A stretch of DNA of 64,000 nt from an uncultured Rickettsiales bacterium (GTDB taxonomy: Bacteria; Myxococcota_A; UBA796; UBA9615; CAYRNR01): the NCBI GenBank assembly GCA_964504165.1, contig CAZDDH010000006.1:4235-68234 (forward strand), read 5' to 3'. Below are positions 3,408 to 57,121 of this stretch, piece after piece. Made by a program: the position numbers and the translations under genes. The notes beneath the pieces were generated by a model, which searched no databases, had not been told where the DNA came from, and worked only from the letters and a program-made list of their open reading frames with translations. Each line of letters begins with the position of its first letter. Positions within the stretch are counted from its first letter, which is position 1.

Positions 3408-4058
3408 ATGCCGGATGACCGGCCCGATATTCGGTTGAGCCGCAAGGAAAGGGAACGGGAACGAACCCGCCGGGATATCCTGGACGCTGCGCTGCAGGTC
3501 TTCGGGCAGGCGGGGTACCACCAGGCGTGCATGGAGGACGTGGCGCGGGAGGCCGGGTTCTCCACCGGAGCGCTGTACAACTACTTCCGCAACAAAGAAG
3601 ACATCTTCGTATCCCTGGTTCGCAGGGTGTTCGGCGAACTGGAGAGCCAGTTCACCAGCGCTCTGGAGAAGCCGGGGTCGTTCCACGACGGCCTCCAGCA
3701 ATTCCTCGACACCGTCGCCGAGTTCTCCGAGCACAACATCGTCGCGTTCCGCTTCATGATGGCCGCCGAGGCCCAGCCACCGGTGGCCAGCGAACAGCTC
3801 CACAAGGACATGATCGGTGGATTCTTCCGCATGATCGATGCGCTCTCGGGCCTGATGGAGCGGGGCATCGACGAGGGCGCCCTGCGGGAGCAGGACCCCA
3901 ACATCGCCGCCCACGCGATGATGGCGTTGCTCGGCCACTTCCTCCGCGGCTGGGTCATGTCCCAGGCGGAGGATCCACCCCGCCCGGTGCAAGAGTTCAT
4001 GGAGATGGTCCGGACGCACTTCCTGTACGGCGCCGCCGTACCCATAGAGGACAAGTGA
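3408..4058 (+). CDS. TetR/AcrR-family repressor of the adjacent efflux operon
   Basis: Has the TetR_N HTH motif (RRDILDAALQVFGQAGYHQACMEDVAREAGFSTGALYNYFRNKEDIF). ATG at 3408 is preceded by a GGAGG RBS (3396-3400). Stop overlaps the TolC start (ATGA). Confidence 0.85.
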   Translation: MPDDRPDIRLSRKERERERTRRDILDAALQVFGQAGYHQACMEDVAREAGFSTGALYNYFRNKEDIFVSLVRRVFGELESQFTSALEKPGSFHDGLQQFLDTVAEFSEHNIVAFRFMMAAEAQPPVASEQLHKDMIGGFFRMIDALSGLMERGIDEGALREQDPNIAAHAMMALLGHFLRGWVMSQAEDPPRPVQEFMEMVRTHFLYGAAVPIEDK

Positions 4059-5512
4059 TGCTACCGATACGTAAGCCCAGTTTGTGGGTCGCTCTGTTGC
4101 TGGCGGTGTTGGCCGCCGGCACCGCCAACGCCCGCACCCTGACCGCCCAGGACGCTGTCGTCCTGGCCCTGGACCACAGCTTGTTGCTGGACGCCGCCGA
4201 ATACGGCGAGGCCCAGGCCAAGGCCCAGGCGGACGAGGCGTTGATGCAGTTCTTCCCCAAGATCACGGGGACGGCCGGCTACACGCGCCTGGATCCGGTC
4301 CCTTACATGGAGTTCGATACCAGCGATTTCATGACCGACATGGAGCCGGACTTCAGCGATATCGATCCGGATACGTTACCGCCGGGCTGGACCATCGAGT
4401 TCCTGGAGATGTTCGCCGAGGGCATGATGGGCGGCACCTCGGACGAACCCACCGAACCGACCCGCATCGACATGGGCATGGCCAACAACTGGCAGCTGGC
4501 GGGGCAGGCCGAGCAGATCATCTTTGCCGGTGGCGCCCTGCACCAGTCCCGGGCGGCGAGCATGGACATGTGGCGGGCCAGCGGGGAGCAGGTGCGGTTC
4601 ACCCGGCACGATACGGCGTTCCAGGCGGAGCAGAGCTTCTACGGGCTGGTGGCCGCCCGCAACGCGGTGCGGGTCACGGCGGATGCTCAGGCGCTGACCC
4701 AGGCCTATGTGGACGATCTGCAGAACCTGGTGGACGTGGGCATGGCCAGCCGGGCCGATCTGCTGGCAGCCCAGGTGCAGCTGAGCCAGGCCAAGCTGGA
4801 TGCCATGAAGATGGCCCACATGACCGGCCTGGCCGAGCGTTCCTTCCGCATCATGTTGGGTATCCCCATGGGTGAGCGGCTGGAGCTGGTGATGGATGAC
4901 CAGCTGCCGGTGAACGATCTGCCGGCCGAACGGAATGCCATCGTCGAAATGGCGCTGCGCAACCGCCCGGATCTGGCCAGCATGGATTACACCCTGGACG
5001 CCATGAAGCACTACTCCAACGCGGCCTGGGCGTCGTGGCTCCCCGCGGTGGTGCTGCTGGGCAACCTCAACGCCCAGAACCCCAACTACTCCAACGAAGC
5101 GGAGTGGATGTACAGCGCCAACGCCACCGTGGCGCTGAGCTGGTCCCTGTGGGATCGGGGCGCGGCGATCCACCAGAACCGGGCCGCCAAGGCCGGCTAC
5201 CGGCAGCTGGAGAGCCAGCGGGCCTTCATGGTGGAGATGATGGACGTGGAGCTGGAGTCGGCCATCACCTCCTTCGACGAGGCCGCCGCCGAGCTAGCGG
5301 TGGCTCGCGAGGGCCTCGGCCAGGCCCAGGAGAGCATGCGGCTCGAACAGGAACGGTTCGAGGCAGGCGTGGCCAACAACACCCAGCTGTTGACGGCCCA
5401 GACGGCCATGGCCGGCTCGGAGCTGTCGGTCCTACAGGCCGAAACCCAGATGCGAATTTCATACGCGGCGCTCAGAAAAGCCGTGGGGATGGAACCGGAG
5501 GTCGGACGATGA
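4058..5512 (+). CDS. TolC-family outer-membrane efflux protein (OMF)
   Basis: 484 aa with signal peptide MLPIRKPSLWVALLLAVLAAGTANA and two repeated coiled-coil/β-barrel halves typical of OMF proteins. ATG at 4058. Track ORF 3527.. is a spurious 5' extension in the same frame. Confidence 0.82.
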   Translation: MLPIRKPSLWVALLLAVLAAGTANARTLTAQDAVVLALDHSLLLDAAEYGEAQAKAQADEALMQFFPKITGTAGYTRLDPVPYMEFDTSDFMTDMEPDFSDIDPDTLPPGWTIEFLEMFAEGMMGGTSDEPTEPTRIDMGMANNWQLAGQAEQIIFAGGALHQSRAASMDMWRASGEQVRFTRHDTAFQAEQSFYGLVAARNAVRVTADAQALTQAYVDDLQNLVDVGMASRADLLAAQVQLSQAKLDAMKMAHMTGLAERSFRIMLGIPMGERLELVMDDQLPVNDLPAERNAIVEMALRNRPDLASMDYTLDAMKHYSNAAWASWLPAVVLLGNLNAQNPNYSNEAEWMYSANATVALSWSLWDRGAAIHQNRAAKAGYRQLESQRAFMVEMMDVELESAITSFDEAAAELAVAREGLGQAQESMRLEQERFEAGVANNTQLLTAQTAMAGSELSVLQAETQMRISYAALRKAVGMEPEVGR

Positions 5513-6645
5513 ATCACACCCTGAGGAACGGTCTTGCCCTGGCGGGAGTTTCGTTATTGGCCCTGGCCCTGGCGGGATGCCAGGCGATGGGGTTCTCCAG
5601 CACGGAGGTCCAGGAGGTGGGCGCGCTGGTGTCCGTCGAGGACGTGCACAGCGGCTACCTGGAGCGCACGCTCGAACTCACCGGATCCGTGGACGCCGGC
5701 CAGTCGATCCGGATGGTCCCGGACATGCCCGGCAAGGTGAAGCGGCTGCCTGTGAAGGTGGGTGATCGGGTCCCCAAGGGCACCCTGCTGGCCCAGCTGG
5801 ACCTGGACATGGCCCAGCTCCAAAAGGAGCAGGCCGAGGCGGCGGTGAAGCTCGCCGAGCTCCAGCTGGAGAGCGCCACCACCGAGTTCGGCCGCGCCGA
5901 GCAGCTCCACCAGAGCGGCTCCTTGACCGGCCAGCAGTTCGACCAGGCCCGCACCGGCCTGAGCATGGCCGAGCAGCAGCTGGCCCAGGCCTCGGCCGCA
6001 CGCGGCCTCGCCTCCGAGCAGATCAGCGGCGGCGCCCTGTACGCCCCGTTCGACGGCGTGGTGACCCAGGTGGGTTGCGAGCAGGGGGAGTACTTCAATC
6101 CCATGGGGATGTCCGCCACCGGTGGGGCAGCCGTGCTGGTGTCGCTGGTGAACCTGGATACGATCCGCGTCGATCTCCAGGTGGCCGACTCGGACATCGG
6201 CCGCATCCGCGACGGCATGTCCGTGCGGATCTGGGTGGACGTGGTTTCCGACCAGCTCTCCGAGGAGGGCATCGAGGGTACGGTCACCAATATCGGCCTG
6301 GCCGCCGATCCGGCCACCCGCACCTTCCCCGTGCGGGTGGAAGCGACCAACCCCGAGCAGATCGTCCGCGCTGGCATGCACGCCCGGGTGGGACTGGTGC
6401 TGGAGCGCAAGGAGGGCGTGCTGTACGTGCCCGCCGATGCGCTGCGCAATGACGGCAGCGGGGACTACGTGATGGTGGCGGGCACGGCGGAAAAGGGCTC
6501 GGTGGCTCGCAAGACCGATGTGACGATCGCTCTCAAGGGCGACCAAGGGGTGGAGATCGTCTCCGGTCTCGAGGGAGGCGAGAAGGTGGTCGTGGAGGGG
6601 AACTTCGGGCTTCCGGATGGAGCCCTCATCGAGGTGTCCCAGTGA
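5509..6645 (+). CDS. RND efflux periplasmic adaptor (membrane fusion protein, HlyD/AcrA family)
   Basis: Lipobox LALAGCQ followed by a coiled-coil hairpin (AQLQKEQAEAAVKLAELQLESA...) and β-barrel/MPD domains. ATG at 5509 overlaps the TolC stop (ATGA). Confidence 0.88.
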   Translation: MNHTLRNGLALAGVSLLALALAGCQAMGFSSTEVQEVGALVSVEDVHSGYLERTLELTGSVDAGQSIRMVPDMPGKVKRLPVKVGDRVPKGTLLAQLDLDMAQLQKEQAEAAVKLAELQLESATTEFGRAEQLHQSGSLTGQQFDQARTGLSMAEQQLAQASAARGLASEQISGGALYAPFDGVVTQVGCEQGEYFNPMGMSATGGAAVLVSLVNLDTIRVDLQVADSDIGRIRDGMSVRIWVDVVSDQLSEEGIEGTVTNIGLAADPATRTFPVRVEATNPEQIVRAGMHARVGLVLERKEGVLYVPADALRNDGSGDYVMVAGTAEKGSVARKTDVTIALKGDQGVEIVSGLEGGEKVVVEGNFGLPDGALIEVSQ

Positions 6646-48460: not shown

Positions 48461-50781
48461 GATTCCCAGGGCGGCTTCTCGGATGAGGGCAGCTGGGCCG
48501 GCGGCGCAGCCGGTGCCGCCGATCGGGGCGATGGGGTGACCCCCTCGCCTGCGGTGCGGACCTGCTCGGATGGATCGAGGGGTAGATCCCTCAGCGCCTT
48601 CTGCGCCTCCGGATCGTCCCGACGCCGCAACTCCTGGACCGCGGCCGCGCGCAGCTCATCCGGGTAGAACGGTTTGCGCCCGATGAGGCCCCGCTTTCGG
48701 TTGAGGACCTGGTCCAGGGCTTCGATGACGGCCTTGCCGGGTAAGGACGAGAGCCGCTCAACCGCAGCCAACCGGACGGCCAGCACCGGGGATTCGTCGG
48801 CCACCTGCATCAGGAATTGCAGGACGTTGAATTCCGGATCGTAACGGAAGGCCGTGACGATGGCTTCCAGGGCATCCGGTGTATCCAGCTCGACGCCCTC
48901 GGCAACCGATCTCAGCACCCGGCGGGCTGCCGGAGTGTCCATCTCCGCGCAGGCCACGATGGCCTCTTGGCGCACGCGCGGATCCTCGTTGTCCAAGAAG
49001 CGGGCGATCCAGTCCAGGAATCGGTCATCCCCGATCTTTCGGATCACCAGCAGGAGGTTACGGACGTAGTACCAAGGGTGGTCGTCCGCGTGTTCGATCT
49101 CCAGCAGGATCGAACGGAAGGTCCTGTTGAACGCGCCGCGCGTGATGGAGTGTTCCTGGGACAACAGGCGGGCCACGATGTCCACGATGGAGAGCCTGAT
49201 CCGCGGATTCTGGGAGCGCTTGAGTTCGGCCAGCAGCAGGTCGCCGACGTTGGGGCCCAGGTGCATGAGGATATCGTTGGAGCGCCGCGAGATCGGTACA
49301 TCCGCGTCGATGCAGCCCAGCAGCAACCGGTCGACCAGCTCGGGACGGCACAACCAGCGCAACAGCTGGTTGGCCCGCGACCGGATGATCAGGGGCGTGC
49401 GCTGGGACATGCGCATGTGGTCGACCACCTTGAGGGACGACAACGCCGGCTCCAGATCCCCATCGGCGATCCGTCCGGGAATGAGCGTCTCGAGGGCCTC
49501 GCAGATGAGCATGAACAGGTCCGGATCGTCGGTCTTCGAGCTGCGGAAGGCCAGTTCCTGGACGACGCGGCTCGCCAGCTGATCCGCGTGGACCAGGCCC
49601 TTGAGGGTCTGCTCGCGGAGGCCCTTGTTCTGGGGGAGGGGATAGGCGAGGAATCGGGCGATGACATCCGGGGGAAGATCCAGCACCAGCGAAGCCATGC
49701 GCTGGGTGAAGATCATCGTCTCCTGGGGATCCCCCAGCTGACTGATAGCCGTCGAGTACCGGCCGACCAGCTCGCGTAGCACCGTGTGGCGCGTGGCGGA
49801 ATCCTGGCCCTCCAGGGCCACCTCCAGATAGGTACGGACAAAGGTGTCGAACTTGCGGAAACCGGCACCCGAGGCGTAGCCGACGAAGTGCCGTGATGCC
49901 AGCAGGTTGACCGGATCCCAGCGCGCCAGATCGGGATCGTCCTCGAGCATCGAGAAGTCGTACCGCACCGTGTCGAGCTGGGAACCCCGGAGTTTCCAGA
50001 AGGGAAAGCCCTCGGGGAACACGTCGTATTTGACTCCGGTGAAATCCATCTCGCCCAGGTCGACGGAGTTGAAATCGAAGCTGGCGAAATCGATCTTGCT
50101 GACATCGACGTCAGCCGCACCCACGTCGGTGAGCTCCACGGAATCGGTCGCACCGAGCTCGGGCACGGGATAGGAACCCGAGATGGAGGCATCGCCGGTG
50201 GAATGGAAGATGTCCAGCCTGCTGCTGACCACGCTTTCGCCGACGTCACCCCCGCCCATGGTGGTACGGACGATGGCGAAGTTCACCGCGATATGCTGGA
50301 TGGACCGCGATTTCAGCACATCGGCAAGATCGACGGGAGCGTTGGCATTGTCGGGTAGCTTGTACAGCAACCCGCAGAACCCGACGAGTTCGGTCCGGTT
50401 GAGCTGGGGCATGAATCCCAAGCTGGTGATTCCCCTCGTCCGCAGGAACGTGGAGGTCATCACCGCGTAGTCCATGGTCTCCCCCGGTACCGTGGGGACA
50501 CAGCCGTTGACCTGCATGTACTGATCGGTGGACTGGAGGATCAGCGGCTTGCCGTGGGCGTGGAACGGCTTGAGCTCGTTCAGCCATTGCTGCGCAGCAT
50601 CCAAGACCACCGGATGGTCAGGCGTATAGAGCCGCATGTTCAGCAGCAGGTTCCTGAACGACCTCAAGACGGACCCCACCTGTTTGGGCGGGGGAACCAT
50701 CACCTCGGATAGGTCGAAACGTCTGGTTTCTGGAGTCTTTTTGGACACAGCTATCCACTCCTCATCGGAATGCTGGCCCAT
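48457..50781 (-). CDS. Large cytoplasmic HEAT/PBS-lyase-repeat protein (774 aa), hypothetical
   Basis: C-terminal HEAT-like repeats (..DPRVRQEAIVACAEM.., ..NPRIRLSIVDIVARL..). No signal peptide or TM. Confidence 0.72.
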   Translation of the reverse strand: MGQHSDEEWIAVSKKTPETRRFDLSEVMVPPPKQVGSVLRSFRNLLLNMRLYTPDHPVVLDAAQQWLNELKPFHAHGKPLILQSTDQYMQVNGCVPTVPGETMDYAVMTSTFLRTRGITSLGFMPQLNRTELVGFCGLLYKLPDNANAPVDLADVLKSRSIQHIAVNFAIVRTTMGGGDVGESVVSSRLDIFHSTGDASISGSYPVPELGATDSVELTDVGAADVDVSKIDFASFDFNSVDLGEMDFTGVKYDVFPEGFPFWKLRGSQLDTVRYDFSMLEDDPDLARWDPVNLLASRHFVGYASGAGFRKFDTFVRTYLEVALEGQDSATRHTVLRELVGRYSTAISQLGDPQETMIFTQRMASLVLDLPPDVIARFLAYPLPQNKGLREQTLKGLVHADQLASRVVQELAFRSSKTDDPDLFMLICEALETLIPGRIADGDLEPALSSLKVVDHMRMSQRTPLIIRSRANQLLRWLCRPELVDRLLLGCIDADVPISRRSNDILMHLGPNVGDLLLAELKRSQNPRIRLSIVDIVARLLSQEHSITRGAFNRTFRSILLEIEHADDHPWYYVRNLLLVIRKIGDDRFLDWIARFLDNEDPRVRQEAIVACAEMDTPAARRVLRSVAEGVELDTPDALEAIVTAFRYDPEFNVLQFLMQVADESPVLAVRLAAVERLSSLPGKAVIEALDQVLNRKRGLIGRKPFYPDELRAAAVQELRRRDDPEAQKALRDLPLDPSEQVRTAGEGVTPSPRSAAPAAPPAQLPSSEKPPWES

Positions 50782-50893
50782 TGTATACGCTCACTCGGTG
50801 TACACAACTGTAACGCTCATTTACGTACGCGCGGGATTCTGGTTAGCTTCGGGCGCGGGGTCGGTTCCGGCCGCCGCGCCACGGGAGGTAGGA

Positions 50894-52252
50894 ATGACGG
50901 CACCGAAGTGGCTGCAGGAAGTGGACTGGGAGCAGGTTCAGGCCGAGGCGCTGGATTTCTTGCAGCGCCTGCTTCGCATCGACACGACGAATCCTCCAGG
51001 CAATGAACTGGCCGCTTGCCAGCTGATCGCGGAGGTGCTCGAAGAGGAAGGTATTCCCCACGAACTTTTCGAAGTGGCCCCCGGGAGAGCCAACCTCGTC
51101 GCGCGCATCGAGGGCGACGGTGGAGGCGAGCCGGTCCTGCTGTCGGCCCACCTGGATGTGGTCGAGGCGGACGACGAGGCGTGGACCTATCCGCCCTTTG
51201 GCGGCGAGATCCACGAGGGCTGTGTGTGGGGCCGCGGTGCCATCGACATGAAGAACATGGCTGCCATGGAACTCGCGTGCGTGCTCGCCGTGAAGCGGCA
51301 CGTGGGATCGAAGATCGGACGCGACCTGATCTTCGCTGCGGTCGCTGACGAAGAGGCCGGTTGTGAGCTGGGCTCCCTGTGGCTGGCCCGTCACCATCCC
51401 CAGAAGGTGCGCGCGGGTATCGCCATCGGTGAGGTGGGAGGATTCACGGTCCATGTCGGTGACACGCGCATCGTGCCGGTGCAGGTAGCCGAGAAGGGTG
51501 TGTGCTGGCTCAAGATCACCGCAAGCGGCGAGGGCGGTCACGGATCGATGCCGATCGGCGACAGCGCCATCGGACGGATCGGTGAAGCGGCACAGCGCCT
51601 GGCCCGCACCGATCTACCCATGCATGTCACACCGGTCGTGCGACATTTTGTCGAACAGCTCGCATCGCACCAGCCGGCGGTGAAAGGAATCGTGCTGAAA
51701 CGGTTGCTACAACCCTGGAGCAGCGACTGGATCCTCGACCATGTCATCCCAGACGCCGAGCAAGCGCAGCTGTTCCGGGTACTGTTGCGGAATACGGCCG
51801 CGCCGACCGTGCTCCAGGCGGGATCCAAGGTCAACGTGATCCCGACGGCGGCCGAACTCAAGGTGGATGGCCGCACACTCCCGGGACAGGACGATGAGGC
51901 CTTTCTCGCCGAGGTTCGTGCCGTCATCGGCGAGGGGTTCGAGGTCGAGATCGAGCGATCCTTGCCGCCGGTCGAAGGGCGCGTCGATGATCCGGTGCTC
52001 GCCGTGATCCAGGAGGTCATCGACCAGCTAGATCCTGGCGCCGTCGTCATCCCCAACACGATTACCGGATTCACCGATGCCAAGGCCTGGTCATCGTTGG
52101 GCAGCCGCTGTATCGGATTTTCGCCGATCCGGCTCGGGCCCGAACTTCCGTTCAAGAAGATGTTCCACGGTGTGGACGAACGCATCCCCGTGGACGGATT
52201 CCAGTTTGGTGTGCGGGCTCTGGTCGAGACGGTGGCGCGGATTCTGGACTGA
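50894..52252 (+). CDS. M20-family metallopeptidase/deacylase (ArgE/DapE/CPG2-like)
   Basis: Metal ligands HLDVV, DMK, ADEE(AG), a dimerisation domain and a C-terminal His. GGGAGG RBS before the ATG at 50894. Confidence 0.88.
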   Translation: MTAPKWLQEVDWEQVQAEALDFLQRLLRIDTTNPPGNELAACQLIAEVLEEEGIPHELFEVAPGRANLVARIEGDGGGEPVLLSAHLDVVEADDEAWTYPPFGGEIHEGCVWGRGAIDMKNMAAMELACVLAVKRHVGSKIGRDLIFAAVADEEAGCELGSLWLARHHPQKVRAGIAIGEVGGFTVHVGDTRIVPVQVAEKGVCWLKITASGEGGHGSMPIGDSAIGRIGEAAQRLARTDLPMHVTPVVRHFVEQLASHQPAVKGIVLKRLLQPWSSDWILDHVIPDAEQAQLFRVLLRNTAAPTVLQAGSKVNVIPTAAELKVDGRTLPGQDDEAFLAEVRAVIGEGFEVEIERSLPPVEGRVDDPVLAVIQEVIDQLDPGAVVIPNTITGFTDAKAWSSLGSRCIGFSPIRLGPELPFKKMFHGVDERIPVDGFQFGVRALVETVARILD

Positions 52253-52254
52253 CT

Positions 52255-52983
52255 CTACTTCTTCTTGGCGGGCGCCTTCTTGGCCTTGGGCGCGGCCTTC
52301 TTCTTGGCGGCGGGCTTCTTGGCCGCAGGCTTCTTGGCCTTGGGCGCGGCCTTCTTCTTGGCGGCGGGCTTCTTGGCAGCGGCTTTCGGCGCGGCCTTCG
52401 GCGCGGCCTTCGGCGTGGCCTTCTTACGCCGGATCTCCTTGCCGTCGCGTACGGTGGCCACAATCTCGTCACCGTCCACCTTCACGGTCACGGCATCGCC
52501 AGCGTAGCGCTTGTCCAGCTTGACCTTGGCACCATTCACCAGGATCAGGCCGTCCGGATCCACGAATCCTTCGAGACGCCCGCGGCGCCACGCCTGGTAG
52601 TGCTTGGGGCAGAACCCCTTGGACCGGACCGCAACGTCACAACCATCCACCCTGCAGATGGGCGGGGGGCCGACGCGGGGCGGACGGCCACGGCGCTTGC
52701 CCGTCTTGGTCGTCGCCTTGGCCGGCGGCGTCGCGACAGGAGTTGGTGCCGGCGGGGCCGCCGTAGTCTCACTGGCCTTGGCCAGCTGGTCGGTCAACTC
52801 TTTGATGGTCTCGTCCATCCGCTCGAGCCGGTTCTTCAGGTCCCGGATCTCGGAGCGGGTCGGCAAACCCTTCCGGTCGAGGATCTCGTAGACGATGTCC
52901 TCGACCGGAGTCTGCAGCAGCGGAGTCAGGCGTTCGGCCAGGTTGGCCAAGAAGAAATTCGATACGGTGCTCATGGCTGGCAT
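52255..52983 (-). CDS. PhaF-like protein: phasin-type N-terminal helix + Cys4/His zinc-ribbon + small β (KOW/S4-like) domain + histone-H1-like Ala/Lys/Pro repeat tail
   Basis: N-terminus LAERLTPLLQTPVEDIVYEILDRKGLPTRSEIRDLKNRLERMDETIKEL (PHA-granule-associated family signature). ICRVDGCDVAVRSKGFCPKHYQAWRRG zinc-ribbon. Tail KKATPKAAPKAAPKAAAKKPAAKKKAAPKAKKPAAKKPAAKKKAAPKAKKAPAKKK. Confidence 0.72.
   Translation of the reverse strand: MPAMSTVSNFFLANLAERLTPLLQTPVEDIVYEILDRKGLPTRSEIRDLKNRLERMDETIKELTDQLAKASETTAAPPAPTPVATPPAKATTKTGKRRGRPPRVGPPPICRVDGCDVAVRSKGFCPKHYQAWRRGRLEGFVDPDGLILVNGAKVKLDKRYAGDAVTVKVDGDEIVATVRDGKEIRRKKATPKAAPKAAPKAAAKKPAAKKKAAPKAKKPAAKKPAAKKKAAPKAKKAPAKKK
52276..52383 (-). 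repeat. In-frame 54-bp tandem duplication (2 copies, ~94% identical) encoding the AKP histone-like tail
   Basis: cttcttggccttgggcgcggccttcttcttggcggcgggcttcttggc(c/a)gc(a/g)gg at 52276-52329 and 52330-52383. Confidence 0.7.
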
Positions 52984-52998
52984 CTCCCTATCACAAGA

Positions 52999-53256
52999 TT
53001 AGCGGCGGTCTCCTGTCACCTGTATTCTCGATATTCGCGGCCCGCTGTTCTGCTTCAGCTGGTCAATCTCGTCCCGTACCGACTCCAACAAACGTTCCTG
53101 CTCACCGGTACGCGACAGGACTTTTTGGAATTCGGTGCGAGACGGAATTTCCTTGCGCTCGATGACCTCGAGTACGACGTCTTCGGCAGTTCTCTGCAGC
53201 AGCGGCATCAGGCGCTCCCGCAAGGATCGGAGTATGAGGTCAGAAAGCGGGCCCAT
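52999..53256 (-). CDS. PhaI-like short phasin-type protein (85 aa), paralog of the N-terminus of the adjacent PhaF-like gene
   Basis: LRERLMPLLQRTAEDVVLEVIERKEIPSRTEFQKVLSRTGEQERLLESVRDEI aligns with the N-terminus of 52255..52983. Confidence 0.6.
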   Translation of the reverse strand: MGPLSDLILRSLRERLMPLLQRTAEDVVLEVIERKEIPSRTEFQKVLSRTGEQERLLESVRDEIDQLKQNSGPRISRIQVTGDRR

Positions 53257-53415: not shown

Positions 53416-53925
53416 TCACGGTGACGGTCGGCCGTACAGTGCATCTGCCTCGGCACGCATATCCACGACCAATTGTTGTAGTTCCGTGACCTGTGATGAC
53501 AGTTCCGTGGCCCCGGAAGCGATCTGTTCGGCGGACTCCAACAGCTGCGTCACAGCTTGTGGATCGCGTGGGTTGACCGTTTCGTTGCGACCGGTCATGG
53601 ACTCGGCCACGGTTTCCATCTGCTGGGCTCCGTTCCCCGTGGCCGCAGCCAGCGTCCGGCAGCGAGTTGCACGGATCTCGAGGTCTGCGGCGATGGCTTG
53701 GGTGTCACCGGCATCGATCAACGCCTGCACCTCAGCAGAAACCTGCGTTCCCTCGGGAGGGGCATTTGCGTCCGTTTCCTTGTCATCAACGGTGCCGGAC
53801 GGTTCCGCCGTAGGTGGTTCGGTGCCCGGCTCGGGGCTGCCACAACGGCAACCTAGCGCGAGCAGCGGGAGCAGCATGAGGAGGCAAAATATGGGCAATC
53901 CAGGCAGGAATTCATGGTGTTTCAT
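53416..53925 (-). CDS. Lipoprotein, hypothetical (169 aa)
   Basis: Signal peptide and lipobox LPLLALGC. Thr/Glu/Ala-rich α-helical mature part. Confidence 0.6.
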   Translation of the reverse strand: MKHHEFLPGLPIFCLLMLLPLLALGCRCGSPEPGTEPPTAEPSGTVDDKETDANAPPEGTQVSAEVQALIDAGDTQAIAADLEIRATRCRTLAAATGNGAQQMETVAESMTGRNETVNPRDPQAVTQLLESAEQIASGATELSSQVTELQQLVVDMRAEADALYGRPSP

Positions 53926-54048
53926 AGGCTGGACGATAGCGACCCATCGTCGAAAAAATCAAGCAAAGGTATGATTCGGTTCATACTCGTGCACTCGCGC
54001 GACGACACCGGGGGTTCCGGCCCCGGAGATGGTTTGGGTGGAGGTCTC

Positions 54049-54675
54049 ATGGCGCTGGACGTTGCGGAAGAAATCCTCGACCGCCTGGAACAACGGGTGG
54101 TCGAAGTGGAAGAGGGAACCACGGCGGAGGTCGTGGTCGTGATCGCCCACCGATCGGGTTCCTACAGAGACGCGGCGGCGCTGTGGGGAGTCGGCGTGGG
54201 GTTGTCCGCATTGCTACTACTGATGGTGGTTCCTGTCGGGTTCTGGGAAGGCACGGTGATGGCTTTGACACTGGTCGCAGGGTTGGCCGGCAGCGCCATT
54301 GCGGCCCGTCAGCCTTTCCTGCTACGCCTGCTGTCGTCGCGTGCGCGTCAGCGCGGAAACGTACGCCGGCGAGCACGGGCAGCGTTCTTCGATGAAGCCG
54401 TCTCGGCGACCCGTGAACGGACCGGACTGCTCGTTTTCTATTCTCTCCTGGAGGACACCGTGGAAGTACTCACCGACCACGGGCTGGACGCGAGGATCGC
54501 CAAGGGCACCTGGAACACGATCGTCGCGGAGGCGACGGAAGTGGCAGGGCCAGGACGATGGGAGCACAACATCGACGAGTTGTTAGCCCGCTGTACGCCC
54601 ATTCTCGCCGAGCGCTTCCCCTGTACCGAAGACAACCCAAACGAGATTTCGAACCGTCCGAGGGTATTGCTGTGA
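54049..54675 (+). CDS. Membrane protein, hypothetical (2 TM). Start uncertain; in-frame alternatives are ATG 53971 and GTG 53914.
   Basis: ATG at 54049 is preceded by GGAGG 4 nt upstream. TM helices AALWGVGVGLSALLLLMVVPVGF and ALTLVAGLAGSAIAA. Stop overlaps the next gene's GTG (GTGA). Confidence 0.45.
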   Translation: MALDVAEEILDRLEQRVVEVEEGTTAEVVVVIAHRSGSYRDAAALWGVGVGLSALLLLMVVPVGFWEGTVMALTLVAGLAGSAIAARQPFLLRLLSSRARQRGNVRRRARAAFFDEAVSATRERTGLLVFYSLLEDTVEVLTDHGLDARIAKGTWNTIVAEATEVAGPGRWEHNIDELLARCTPILAERFPCTEDNPNEISNRPRVLL

Positions 54676-56273
54676 TCCACATCGGCCGACCATTATTTGC
54701 AACACTCCGTCCCCGGTTTTATTGTTTTTTCTTGCTTTGCATCGCGGCAGCGGTGGTCAGCAATCCGCTGGATGCGCTAGCTCGAGTAGGCGGAGGGGAT
54801 AGTTTCGGCGGCGGCGGTGGTGGTGGATTCGACGGCGGTGGCGGTGATGACGCCGTGATCATTTATATCCTCTTTCAGATCGCCCGGCTGTTGATCATCT
54901 TGACCATCGAACATCCTGCCATCGGCATTCCCCTGGACATCATCTTCGTGATCGTCGTGGCCCTCTACATCCGCCGCCGCATGAAGAGCAAGCGGCCGGG
55001 AATCCGTGGTTCCACGACCAGGCCCCCGGCCCGGCGCCAGCCGGCCCGCAACGACGCCATCAGGCGTGCGTCGGCGATCCAGGCCGCCCTGGCTCAGCTG
55101 CGTAGCGAAGATCCCAACTTCTCCCGGCCCCTGTTCCTTGATTTCGTGCAACTCCTGTATACGCGTGCACAAGAACACCGTGGTTCCGGCAAACTCGATC
55201 ACCTCGCTCCGTATATCCGCAACAAGGTCCGCCAGGAGCTGGCCGCGCTGCCGGGCATCGAGCGGGGCTCGTCCGCTCTGGCTGGCGTGGACCGTATCGT
55301 CGTCGGCGCGTCGCGCATCATCGACGTGGGGGGGAAGGGGCAGTCCTTCCGGCGCGTCGGCGTGGAATTCGAGACCAACTACAGGGAGCGCTGGGGGGAC
55401 GGGAAGACGTCGGGTGAGCAGACCCTGTATTGCCAGGAACGCTGGATCTTCCGCCGGGACCACGGGGTTCTGTCCAAGGGGCCGGAGGCGATCACGAGCT
55501 TCCGCTGCCCGAGCTGCGGCGCCGCAGCCGAGCTGTCCCCCGATGGCACCTGTCCATACTGCAAGAACGTGGTGGACCGGGGAGCCTTCCACTGGGTCGT
55601 CGAAGCGGTCCAGGTGATACAACGAAGGCCCCGGGGTCGCTCGGAGATGCATCTGGGGGGTGGAGAAGAGGTCGGTACGGATCTGGCTTCGGTGATGCAA
55701 CCCGAGATCGGTGCCACGCTGCGAGCCCTCCAGGCGCGGGATCCATCCTTCTCCATCGATTCGTTCAGCGAACACGTCCGCGTCGTGTTTTTGGCCTTGC
55801 AGAAGGCCTGGACCGAGATGAACTGGGAAAACGCGCGGGCTTACGAGACCGACCACCTGTTCAGCACCCATCGGTTCTGGATGGATCAGTACAAGGCGGA
55901 AGGATTGCGCAATGTGCTCGACCGCATCGAGATCCAGAAGGTCCAGGTGGTCAAGGTGGAGCAAGACGCTTACTTCGAAGCGGTGACAGCCCGGATCCAT
56001 GCCTCCATGCTCGATTTCGTGCAGGACCCGTCAGGCAAGGTGGTCTCCGGTTCGGCGCGTAAACCACGGGTGTTTTCCGAGTACTGGACCTTCATCCGTC
56101 GCAGCGGCGCCACGGTGGCCGAGGACACCGCCAGCGACCAGTGCCCGAGCTGCGGTGCCGAACTCTCCGTCAGCCAGGCGGGGGTGTGCGAATACTGCGG
56201 CACCAAGGTGGTCACCGGCGAGTTCGGCTGGGTCCTCTCCTCCATCGAACAGGACGAGGTGTACGGCGGCTGA
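54672..56273 (+). CDS. Membrane protein with Gly-rich periplasmic segment and two tandem Tim44-like + Cys4 zinc-ribbon modules
   Basis: Signal/TM (LFATLRPRFYCFFLLCIAAAVVS), then GGGDSFGGGGGGGFDGGGGDD, then a TM. Two repeats each end in CPSCG...C.YC (RCPSCGAAAELSPDGTCPYC and QCPSCGAELSVSQAGVCEYC) after Tim44-like segments. Confidence 0.68.
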   Translation: MIHIGRPLFATLRPRFYCFFLLCIAAAVVSNPLDALARVGGGDSFGGGGGGGFDGGGGDDAVIIYILFQIARLLIILTIEHPAIGIPLDIIFVIVVALYIRRRMKSKRPGIRGSTTRPPARRQPARNDAIRRASAIQAALAQLRSEDPNFSRPLFLDFVQLLYTRAQEHRGSGKLDHLAPYIRNKVRQELAALPGIERGSSALAGVDRIVVGASRIIDVGGKGQSFRRVGVEFETNYRERWGDGKTSGEQTLYCQERWIFRRDHGVLSKGPEAITSFRCPSCGAAAELSPDGTCPYCKNVVDRGAFHWVVEAVQVIQRRPRGRSEMHLGGGEEVGTDLASVMQPEIGATLRALQARDPSFSIDSFSEHVRVVFLALQKAWTEMNWENARAYETDHLFSTHRFWMDQYKAEGLRNVLDRIEIQKVQVVKVEQDAYFEAVTARIHASMLDFVQDPSGKVVSGSARKPRVFSEYWTFIRRSGATVAEDTASDQCPSCGAELSVSQAGVCEYCGTKVVTGEFGWVLSSIEQDEVYGG

Positions 56274-56365: not shown

Positions 56366-57121
56366 ATGGCGGAGTTGTCAGAGAGTCTCAAAGGTAAGGT
56401 CGCGCTGGTCACCGGCGGCATGAAGGGGATCGGGCTGGCCATCTCCACGGATCTAGCGGCCCATGGCGCGGACGTGGCGGCCTGTGGCCGCGGCATGGAC
56501 GCGGCGGAGGAGTTCACCCGGCTCATCGAAGAGAAGGGCCAACGGGCGTTGCCGCTGCAGGCCGATGTATCGGATCACGCGCGAGCCATCGAGGTCGCGG
56601 AGACGATCCGCAAGGAGCTGGGAGGCTTGGACATCCTGGTGCTCAATGCAGGGCTCAATCGCGACGGCGTGATCTGGAAGATGGGTGAAGATTCCTGGGA
56701 CGCGGTCCTGGGCGCCGATCTCAAGGGCAACTTCAACTACACCCGCGCTGTGTCCCCCGGATTCCGGGAGCAGGGCGGCGGCCGCATCATCATCATCTCT
56801 TCCATCAACGGCCTGCGGGGCAAGTTTGGTCAGTCCAACTACTCCGCCGCCAAGGCCGGCGGGATCGGTTTTGCCAAGGCCGTGGCCAAGGAACTGGGCC
56901 GCAAGAACGTGACGGTCAATGTGGTGGCGCCCGGCATGATCCGCACGGCGATGGCTGCCAACATCCCCGAGAAGTTCATCAAGATCGCGGAAGACGAGAC
57001 GGCCGTCGGTCGCATCGGTGACCCCGAGGACATCGCCGGGATCGTCACCTTCCTGGCGTCCGATCGCGCCCGTCACATCACCGGTGAGGTGATCAAGGTA
57101 GACGGCGGTCAGTACATCTGA
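56366..57121 (+). CDS. SDR-family oxidoreductase (3-oxoacyl-ACP reductase FabG-like)
   Basis: TGGxxGIG cofactor motif (VTGGMKGIGLAI), NAG, catalytic S...YxxxK (SSINGLRGKFGQSNYSAAK), PG-I-T. Confidence 0.88.
   Translation: MAELSESLKGKVALVTGGMKGIGLAISTDLAAHGADVAACGRGMDAAEEFTRLIEEKGQRALPLQADVSDHARAIEVAETIRKELGGLDILVLNAGLNRDGVIWKMGEDSWDAVLGADLKGNFNYTRAVSPGFREQGGGRIIIISSINGLRGKFGQSNYSAAKAGGIGFAKAVAKELGRKNVTVNVVAPGMIRTAMAANIPEKFIKIAEDETAVGRIGDPEDIAGIVTFLASDRARHITGEVIKVDGGQYI

Follow-up and report, generated by a model that had tools for sequence, protein, structure and literature searches.

The stretch of DNA analysed here (the window) comprises 64,000 nucleotides (nt) of contig CAZDDH010000006.1 (assembly GCA_964504165.1), deposited under the name of an uncultured Rickettsiales bacterium. 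It carries on its minus strand two adjacent genes, one small and one large, which a sequence-only reading had described as a phasin pair like PhaI and PhaF of polyhydroxyalkanoate (PHA) granules. We found both open reading frames (ORFs) at the positions given in that reading, together with the two peptide strings quoted from them, and the features that we assign to the two genes are collected in Table 1.

A conserved pair of paralogous genes

The N-termini of the two proteins are paralogous, with 39% identity over 71 residues (BLASTP, E 7e-15), which bears out the proposal that both genes begin with a common motif. The small protein is identical to a database protein (P0063). The mechanical ORF of the large gene spans 52255..52983(-) and encodes 242 residues; its true start is probably the second ATG, at 52974 (M4), because all homologues begin MST(I/V)SNF and because the GGGAG spacing fits, this site lying 9 nt 5′ of ATG 52974 but abutting the first ATG. 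The GGGAG lies within the intergenic spacer of 15–24 nt, which begins after the TAA stop of the small gene, and no terminator-like site was found between the two genes. Databases contain 13 relatives of the large protein, all uninformatively named, across which the first 55 residues are nearly invariant; a word-indexed search with the head alignment retrieved small paralogues only, all without names or Pfam domains. A fusion artefact was considered and rejected because the same architecture recurs in the 13 close homologues and in many distant ones.

Table 1 Features of the gene pair. Positions are those of the window; pLDDT, predicted local distance difference test score; pI, isoelectric point.
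Feature	Position	Strand	Remarks
Small paralogue, 85 residues	52999..53256	-	Head and zipper only, without a nucleic-acid-binding part
GGGAG ribosome-binding site of large gene	52984..52988	-	Read from sequence
Large gene	52255..52974	-	239 residues from the probable true start, ATG 52974
Acidic head, residues 4–40	52864..52974	-	Two short helices; almost invariant in large orthologues
G-L-P-T-R helix cap and leucine zipper, residues 41–74	52762..52863	-	pLDDT 84–94
Pro/Ala-rich disordered linker	52705..52761	-	In relatives of variable length, Lys-rich or coiled-coil
AT-hook-like KRRGRPPR, residues 96–103	52675..52698	-	RGRPPR invariant in near clade
Cys3-His finger, C110-x4-C115-x9-C125-x2-H128	52576..52656	-	Followed by basic helix 126–133
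Five-strand small β-barrel, residues 140–188	52420..52566	-	Domain model pLDDT 90.3
Histone-H1-like Lys/Ala/Pro tail	52258..52419	-	pI 11.3
54-bp tandem repeat, 2.3 copies	52261..52385	.	Tandem Repeats Finder, 91% matches, score 211

We scanned related loci with one genome per species, which gave 20 loci, all of them in metagenome-assembled genomes of marine origin that bear the label Deltaproteobacteria, Myxococcota, Proteobacteria or 'uncultured Rickettsiales'. Assemblies GCA_964542165.1 and GCA_964436045.1 are among those with the pair. A head paralogue directly precedes the large gene in every one of the loci (20/20), at spacings that range from an overlap to ~70 nt. In a near clade the pair sits within a syntenic block of a short-chain dehydrogenase, a Tim44-like protein, a TPM protein, a protein of 169–189 residues, the pair, an M20 peptidase, a HEAT protein and a protein of 276 residues. 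A second clade, at ~40% identity and with a G+C content (GC) of ~0.70, keeps the pair, often with overlapping genes, and none of those neighbours. We conclude that the small–large pairing is the sole conserved linkage, because the ~40%-identity clade retains it and loses the other neighbours. The M20 peptidase, HEAT, Tim44-like, TPM and short-chain dehydrogenase genes were set aside as functional clues and are not treated as linked, because they are syntenic within the near clade only.

At two loci the upstream copy is long rather than short (L021, 4888-6126; L024, the C-terminal part of ORF 3421-6627). These long copies consist of head, coiled coil and the same finger, without the barrel. The L021 copy contains six near-identical units of ~40 residues, each with a canonical AT hook (PKRPRGRPRKD), that adjoin the finger, and it passes the Pfam AT_hook model (26.2 bits, cut-off 17.4, four stretches scored). 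In a neighbour-joining tree of the heads, which is rough and carries no support values, the long copies fall together with the distant clade's small proteins. This grouping suggests an old tandem duplication that would have been followed by truncation of the upstream copy.

Other observations concern the surroundings of the pair and the lineage. Directly upstream, on the same strand and throughout the near clade, lies the gene for a 169-residue protein (53416-53925(-)) that matches no family and whose N-terminus (LLALGCRCGS) resembles that of a lipoprotein; the distant clade also has a lipoprotein-like gene upstream, of ~187–210 residues but on the opposite strand (three loci read). The Tim44-like protein (54558-56273(+)), which has C-terminal zinc ribbons, adjoins a weak TPM-domain protein (53914-54675(+)), and these two are kept together in the near clade. 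Mechanical ORFs in this region are N-terminally overlong and overlap their neighbours: M20 (50636-52252(+)) has 538 residues, TPM 253 and Tim44-like 571, against 452–460, 208–209 and 506–525 in the called homologues. The short-chain dehydrogenase (56366-57121(+), 251 residues) scores 253 bits as FabG and 250 as PhaB (acetoacetyl-CoA reductase) and passes the cut-off of one FabG subfamily only; 3.4 kb from the pair, it is the only nearby gene with a conceivable PHA link. Many of the related loci (among L007, L011-L016, L019, L021-L023, L025 and L026) were also deposited as 'uncultured Rickettsiales bacterium', with sister genomes labelled Deltaproteobacteria or Myxococcota, and GC is 64–71% where measured (the window, L009, L011 and L013). 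The Rickettsiales label looks unreliable, and some record labels suggest a lineage related to Myxococcota.

Domain chain and wider family

The full-length model of the large protein is of mixed quality (mean pLDDT 66.5), with helices at residues 5–24, 26–38 and 43–74 and with a disordered linker and tail. Residues 4–40 of the head match no family in Pfam or NCBIfam, and the first helix is weakly amphipathic (hydrophobic moment 0.23). A heptad is visible in the zipper sequence, where the hydrophobic residues L49, L53, M56, I60, L63 and L67 are spaced 4-3-4-3-4. Charge is split along the chain: the pI is 4.85 for the head (residues 1–72), against 9.7 for the finger-plus-barrel region and 11.3 for the tail. 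A profile search of PDB by sequence gave only generic coiled coils, the best at E 0.07.

The motif CRVDGCDVAVRSKGFCPKHYQAWRRG that had been taken for a Cys4/His zinc ribbon is found in the large protein, but the putative ligands are Cys3-His (CCCH) rather than Cys4/His, because C110, C115, C125 and H128 are the residues that are invariant in the 13 close and 49 wider homologues. Beside these ligands, Y129 and R134 are also invariant in the 49 sequences. A model of residues 105–190 based on 49 sequences (pLDDT 90.3, predicted template modelling score 0.75) comprises the finger, the short helix 126–133 and five strands. In structure comparisons, the finger superposes on that of a Gordonia phage HNH endonuclease over 29 residues at 0.4 Å and 45% identity, a non-significant match. 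The five modelled strands support the β domain proposed earlier as KOW/S4-like, but this is better described as a small SH3-like barrel, all of its matches being non-significant: the best local one is the barrel of the IS21 transposase IstA (46–56 residues, ~30% identity, root-mean-square deviation 1.7–4.0 Å), and others are the RNA-binding domain of L2 and SH3. The barrel belongs to no family in Pfam or NCBIfam.

The tail is encoded by the 54-bp tandem duplication noticed in the sequence-only reading, and its last 51 residues are 100% Lys, Ala or Pro, with 22 Lys. Tail length varies from 0 to 110 residues across orthologues: the tail is confined to the near clade (20–110 residues there) and is zero in the distant clade, where a Lys-rich stretch sits in the linker instead, and in L021. 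Two assemblies with 99.9% DNA identity to the window (L028 and L029, 3283-4071) encode 262 residues, a tail 23 residues longer than that of the 239-residue protein, and two short-read contigs (L030 and L031) end inside the repeat. Because near-identical assemblies differ and contigs stop within it, the copy number either is polymorphic in the population or has been made unreliable by assembly collapse at the repeat; the longer tail corresponds to ~3.6 copies, against 2.3 in the window. One relative (P0008) has a precomputed match to PF07382 (Hc2), a likeness of the tail that is compositional and not evidence of homology. A match to the valine-tRNA ligase model NF011492 (E 6e-6) falls on the Lys/Ala-rich tail and was dismissed as low complexity.

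The large protein has many relatives beyond these loci. An exhaustive profile search over 1.84 billion cluster representatives returned 5,409 proteins with E ≤1e-3, of which 638 had E ≤1e-10. Through sequence weighting the search profile had become full-length, so that the matches mix head, finger and barrel, and the 638 include multi-finger proteins without a head. We classified the top 147 cluster representatives with local hidden Markov models (HMMs). Half of them (74/147) have a head and one finger, joined by a spacer of 23–228 residues that is usually coiled-coil, and 19 of the 74 also have a recognisable barrel. Another 47 of the 147 are finger arrays without a head, with up to 13–14 copies; among them are P0081 (886 residues), which has two HNH_3 domains and passes the Zf_WRKY19 model PF24906 at 40.9 bits, and P0103 (535 residues), which scores 52 bits with PF24906. 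By sequence, these arrays seem to form an uncharacterised class of proteins that have many fingers and probably bind DNA.

The four wider-family members whose contigs we read are single genes, with neither a small paralogue nor pha genes nearby. Three loci (L027, L032 and L035, with P0087, P0084 and P0089) have in common a GldG-type ABC transporter with DUF4340, an Rce1-like protease and an NAD-synthase-like gene, and an acetyltransferase in two of the three; this context may reflect synteny or a functional link. In this distribution of domains, the family core is made up of head, spacer and finger, often joined by the barrel, and the H1-like tail is a clade-specific addition. The finger had been described as an insertion into PhaF, a history that this distribution reverses.

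Kinship to phasins

In PhaF, residues 13–105 form an amphipathic PHA-binding helix and residues 111–133 a leucine zipper for tetramerization (PMC3574117), which also mediates hetero-oligomerization with PhaI (PMC7590123). We aligned the large protein and its relatives, profile against profile, by hhalign with a set of 15 real PhaF sequences, all annotated PF05597. Residues 31–66 aligned with PhaF 99–134 (36 columns) with a probability of 92.4%, E 5e-7 and a score of 43.7. Control alignments gave 1.1% (score 16.8) for the reversed PhaF alignment and ≤0.6% (score ≤15.2) for 20 column shuffles. On this alignment, the zipper module is homologous to PhaF 99–134, that is, to the end of the long helix and the leucine zipper. 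Only PhaF 99–134 takes part in the hhalign alignment, in which the PHA-binding helix 13–105 has no counterpart.

Scores of the large protein with the phasin and PhaE models all fall far short of the cut-offs. PF05597 matched at E 0.025, with 15.1 bits for the full length and 19.1 for the head alone (cut-off 28.8), TIGR01837 at E 0.0085 with 16.2–20 bits (cut-off 94.7), and the PhaE model TIGR01834 at E 5.8e-4 with 19.5–22.8 bits (cut-off 154.95) and over profile positions ~275–321 of 324 only. These matches cover residues 23–71 and the last 40–45 profile positions. The small protein gave no match at all in Pfam or NCBIfam. Among 28 non-redundant heads, matches below the cut-offs were obtained for 19 with PF05597 (best E 3.3e-4), 17 with PF09712, 20 with TIGR01837 (9.8e-5) and 19 with TIGR01834 (8e-6), and PF05597/TIGR01837 and PhaE are the only families recurrently matched by heads among the matches listed. 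Phasin_2 (PF09361) is absent from the Pfam matches at E up to 10 and from the 25 of 54 recurrent head families that are listed. The HMM check put forward with the sequence-only reading, a search with TIGR01837 and Phasin_2, thus turned out negative for phasin membership.

Neither a scan of 20 window proteins nor the gene lists of related loci turned up PhaC, PhaE, PhaZ or PhaR, in agreement with the earlier remark that the window lacks a PHA synthase and depolymerase. Of the proposed PhaF/PhaI-like pair, what stands is the layout, a head-only paralogue beside one with head and basic tail, and a specific relation to the phasin zipper; what falls is membership, given the absence of the PHA-binding helix, the absence of pha genes from the proteins and loci covered, and the sub-threshold scores. 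The kinship with phasins, as far as the alignments go, is real and specific, and is confined to the oligomerization module. On the same evidence, we assign the pair to a separate, unnamed protein family rather than to phasins or PhaE.

Candidate roles and comparison with known systems

We lean towards a reading, to which we give somewhat better than balanced confidence, in which the large protein binds nucleic acid and oligomerizes, acting as a multivalent nucleoid-associated (DNA-binding) protein with a head-only partner. Both proteins would assemble through the head and leucine zipper that they share at the N-terminus. The large subunit would contact nucleic acid through the AT-hook-like RGRP, the Cys3-His finger with its basic helix, the SH3-like barrel and the disordered tail in series, and an oligomer of large subunits, presenting several basic arms, could bridge or coat DNA. 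The small subunits may join through the same module without bringing an arm, and in doing so lower the valency, or may link the acidic head to another partner. A KPAA-type tail of this kind binds DNA in PhaF (PMC3574117, PMC7590123). The analysis establishes how the domains are arranged, that the two genes are paralogous and kept as a pair, and that their zipper module is homologous to that of PhaF; zinc binding, DNA binding, hetero-oligomerization and the cellular role we infer.

Several points weigh against this proposal. The Pfam AT_hook model (PF02178) leaves the single RGRP of the window unmatched at E up to 10, because a single motif is too short to register, and the finger reaches only 14 bits with PF24906 (E 0.047; cut-off 27). 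Neither solved nor viral predicted structures gave a significant fold match (all E >0.04). The ligand could be RNA, because KPAA tails also bind RNA, and the highly conserved head (residues 4–40) could serve a cargo. The family, moreover, is described here from sequences and predicted structures.

Other roles can be drawn from the same elements. A sequence-specific transcription regulator, in which finger and AT hook would read a defined operator while the head brings in a partner and the small protein serves as a co- or anti-regulator, seems to us unlikely but worth keeping in mind. A single conserved finger with a basic helix does adjoin the AT-hook-like motif, and the protein is predicted to be oligomeric, as many regulators are. 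Myxococcus CarD, a protein with AT hooks, is paired with CarG, a protein not known to bind DNA itself. However, the long, fast-evolving and non-specific basic tail and the linkers point to bulk binding, and no conserved target gene adjoins the pair. We see a lesser chance, a distinctly low one, that the pair follows the logic of PhaF/PhaI with a cargo other than PHA, as a tether of an organelle or partner to the nucleoid: the cargo, such as a compartment, a granule or a complex of proteins, would be bound by the acidic head 4–40 and fastened to DNA by finger, barrel and tail, with a stoichiometry governed by the head-only paralogue. If so, bacteria would have in the head–spacer–finger family a new class of adaptors associated with chromatin. 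A post-transcriptional regulator that binds RNA has slim prospects in our judgement. It has a precedent in Pseudomonas aeruginosa PhaF, whose disordered KPAA region binds mRNA and activates translation (PMC12818456), and the barrel is weakly and locally similar to the RNA-binding domain of ribosomal protein L2; yet AT hooks and HNH-associated fingers are DNA-associated modules, and the tail is missing in half the family, which keeps finger and barrel.

That the two genes are after all a true PhaF/PhaI-type phasin pair, coating PHA granules and tethering them to the nucleoid, we hold to be very unlikely. In its favour are a gene order (small, then large) and an H1-like tail that recall phaI–phaF, the homology of the zipper module to PhaF/PhaI and to the C-terminus of PhaE, and the FabG/PhaB-ambiguous dehydrogenase 3.4 kb away. 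Against this, the homology stops short of PhaF 13–105, the PHA-binding helix, and the first helix here is the weakly amphipathic one noted above; scores of ~20 bits face cut-offs of 28.8, 94.7 and 155, with Phasin_2 unmatched; PhaC, PhaE, PhaZ and PhaR did not appear among the scanned window proteins or in related loci; the tail is absent from the distant clade and L021; and the dehydrogenase passes a FabG model only. Least credible, with a likelihood close to nil, is that the large protein is left over from, or an accessory to, a mobile element or homing endonuclease. The finger is common to HNH_3 multi-finger proteins and phage HNH endonucleases, but a nuclease domain is lacking, many metagenome-assembled genomes keep the gene at a stable, syntenic place in the chromosome, and tblastn found no match in the plasmid and phage collections.

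If the nucleoid-associated reading is true, a sizeable unnamed family is defined that has an unusual chain of nucleic-acid-binding elements, and the zipper of PhaF, PhaI and PhaE would be a portable oligomerization unit, used outside PHA biology. Caution is warranted where phasins are annotated from the zipper motif alone. The repeat-encoded tail may allow rapid tuning of the charge of a chromatin protein, or else may show an assembly error at repeats. The finding touches no long-standing open question and contains nothing paradoxical; the lineage is uncultured, and the function is one that we infer.

Among known systems, the closest in layout is PhaF/PhaI of Pseudomonas putida, likewise an operon of a short head-only protein and a longer paralogue with a Lys/Ala/Pro H1-like tail, with a homologous G-[LIV]-P-[ST]-R cap (the G-V-P-S-R turn in PhaF) and leucine zipper. 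The window pair differs in lacking the long amphipathic PHA-binding helix and linked pha genes, in HMM scores far below the cut-offs, in the AT-hook-like motif, CCCH finger and barrel between zipper and tail, and in a tail that is not conserved in the family. PhaE (TIGR01834, PF09712) has the same module in its last ~45 profile positions (17–19 of 28 heads, best E 8e-6), but only this terminal module is found here, at ~23 bits against 155, and the rest of PhaE is absent. PhaM of Ralstonia eutropha and AlgP of Pseudomonas aeruginosa are granule-to-nucleoid organizers with Lys/Ala/Pro tails (PMC3556143, PMC9239181). Compared by layout, they resemble the large protein in joining a basic low-complexity tail to an oligomerizing or partner-binding head, and possibly in a tethering logic, but those proteins have a known cargo (polyhydroxybutyrate and polyphosphate).

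The individual elements have likenesses elsewhere. The CxxxxC...CxxH fingers of HNH endonucleases (PF24906; the 'zinc ribbon' HNH endonucleases of PMC3592412) have the same Cys/His spacing, whereas the finger described here is single, lacks an accompanying nuclease and shares its chain with a coiled-coil head and a barrel. The SH3-like C-terminal barrel of IS21 IstA and Mu-type transposases is the best local, non-significant structural match of the barrel, in a protein that, unlike them, has no transposase catalytic domain; among the relatives, P0146 matches PF22483 (E 0.0015), likewise without significance. AT-hook proteins such as HMGA and CarD have the RGRP core flanked by basic residues, and the related L021 paralogue passes the AT_hook model; beyond the hook there is no homology, and the hook of the window escapes detection by the HMM.

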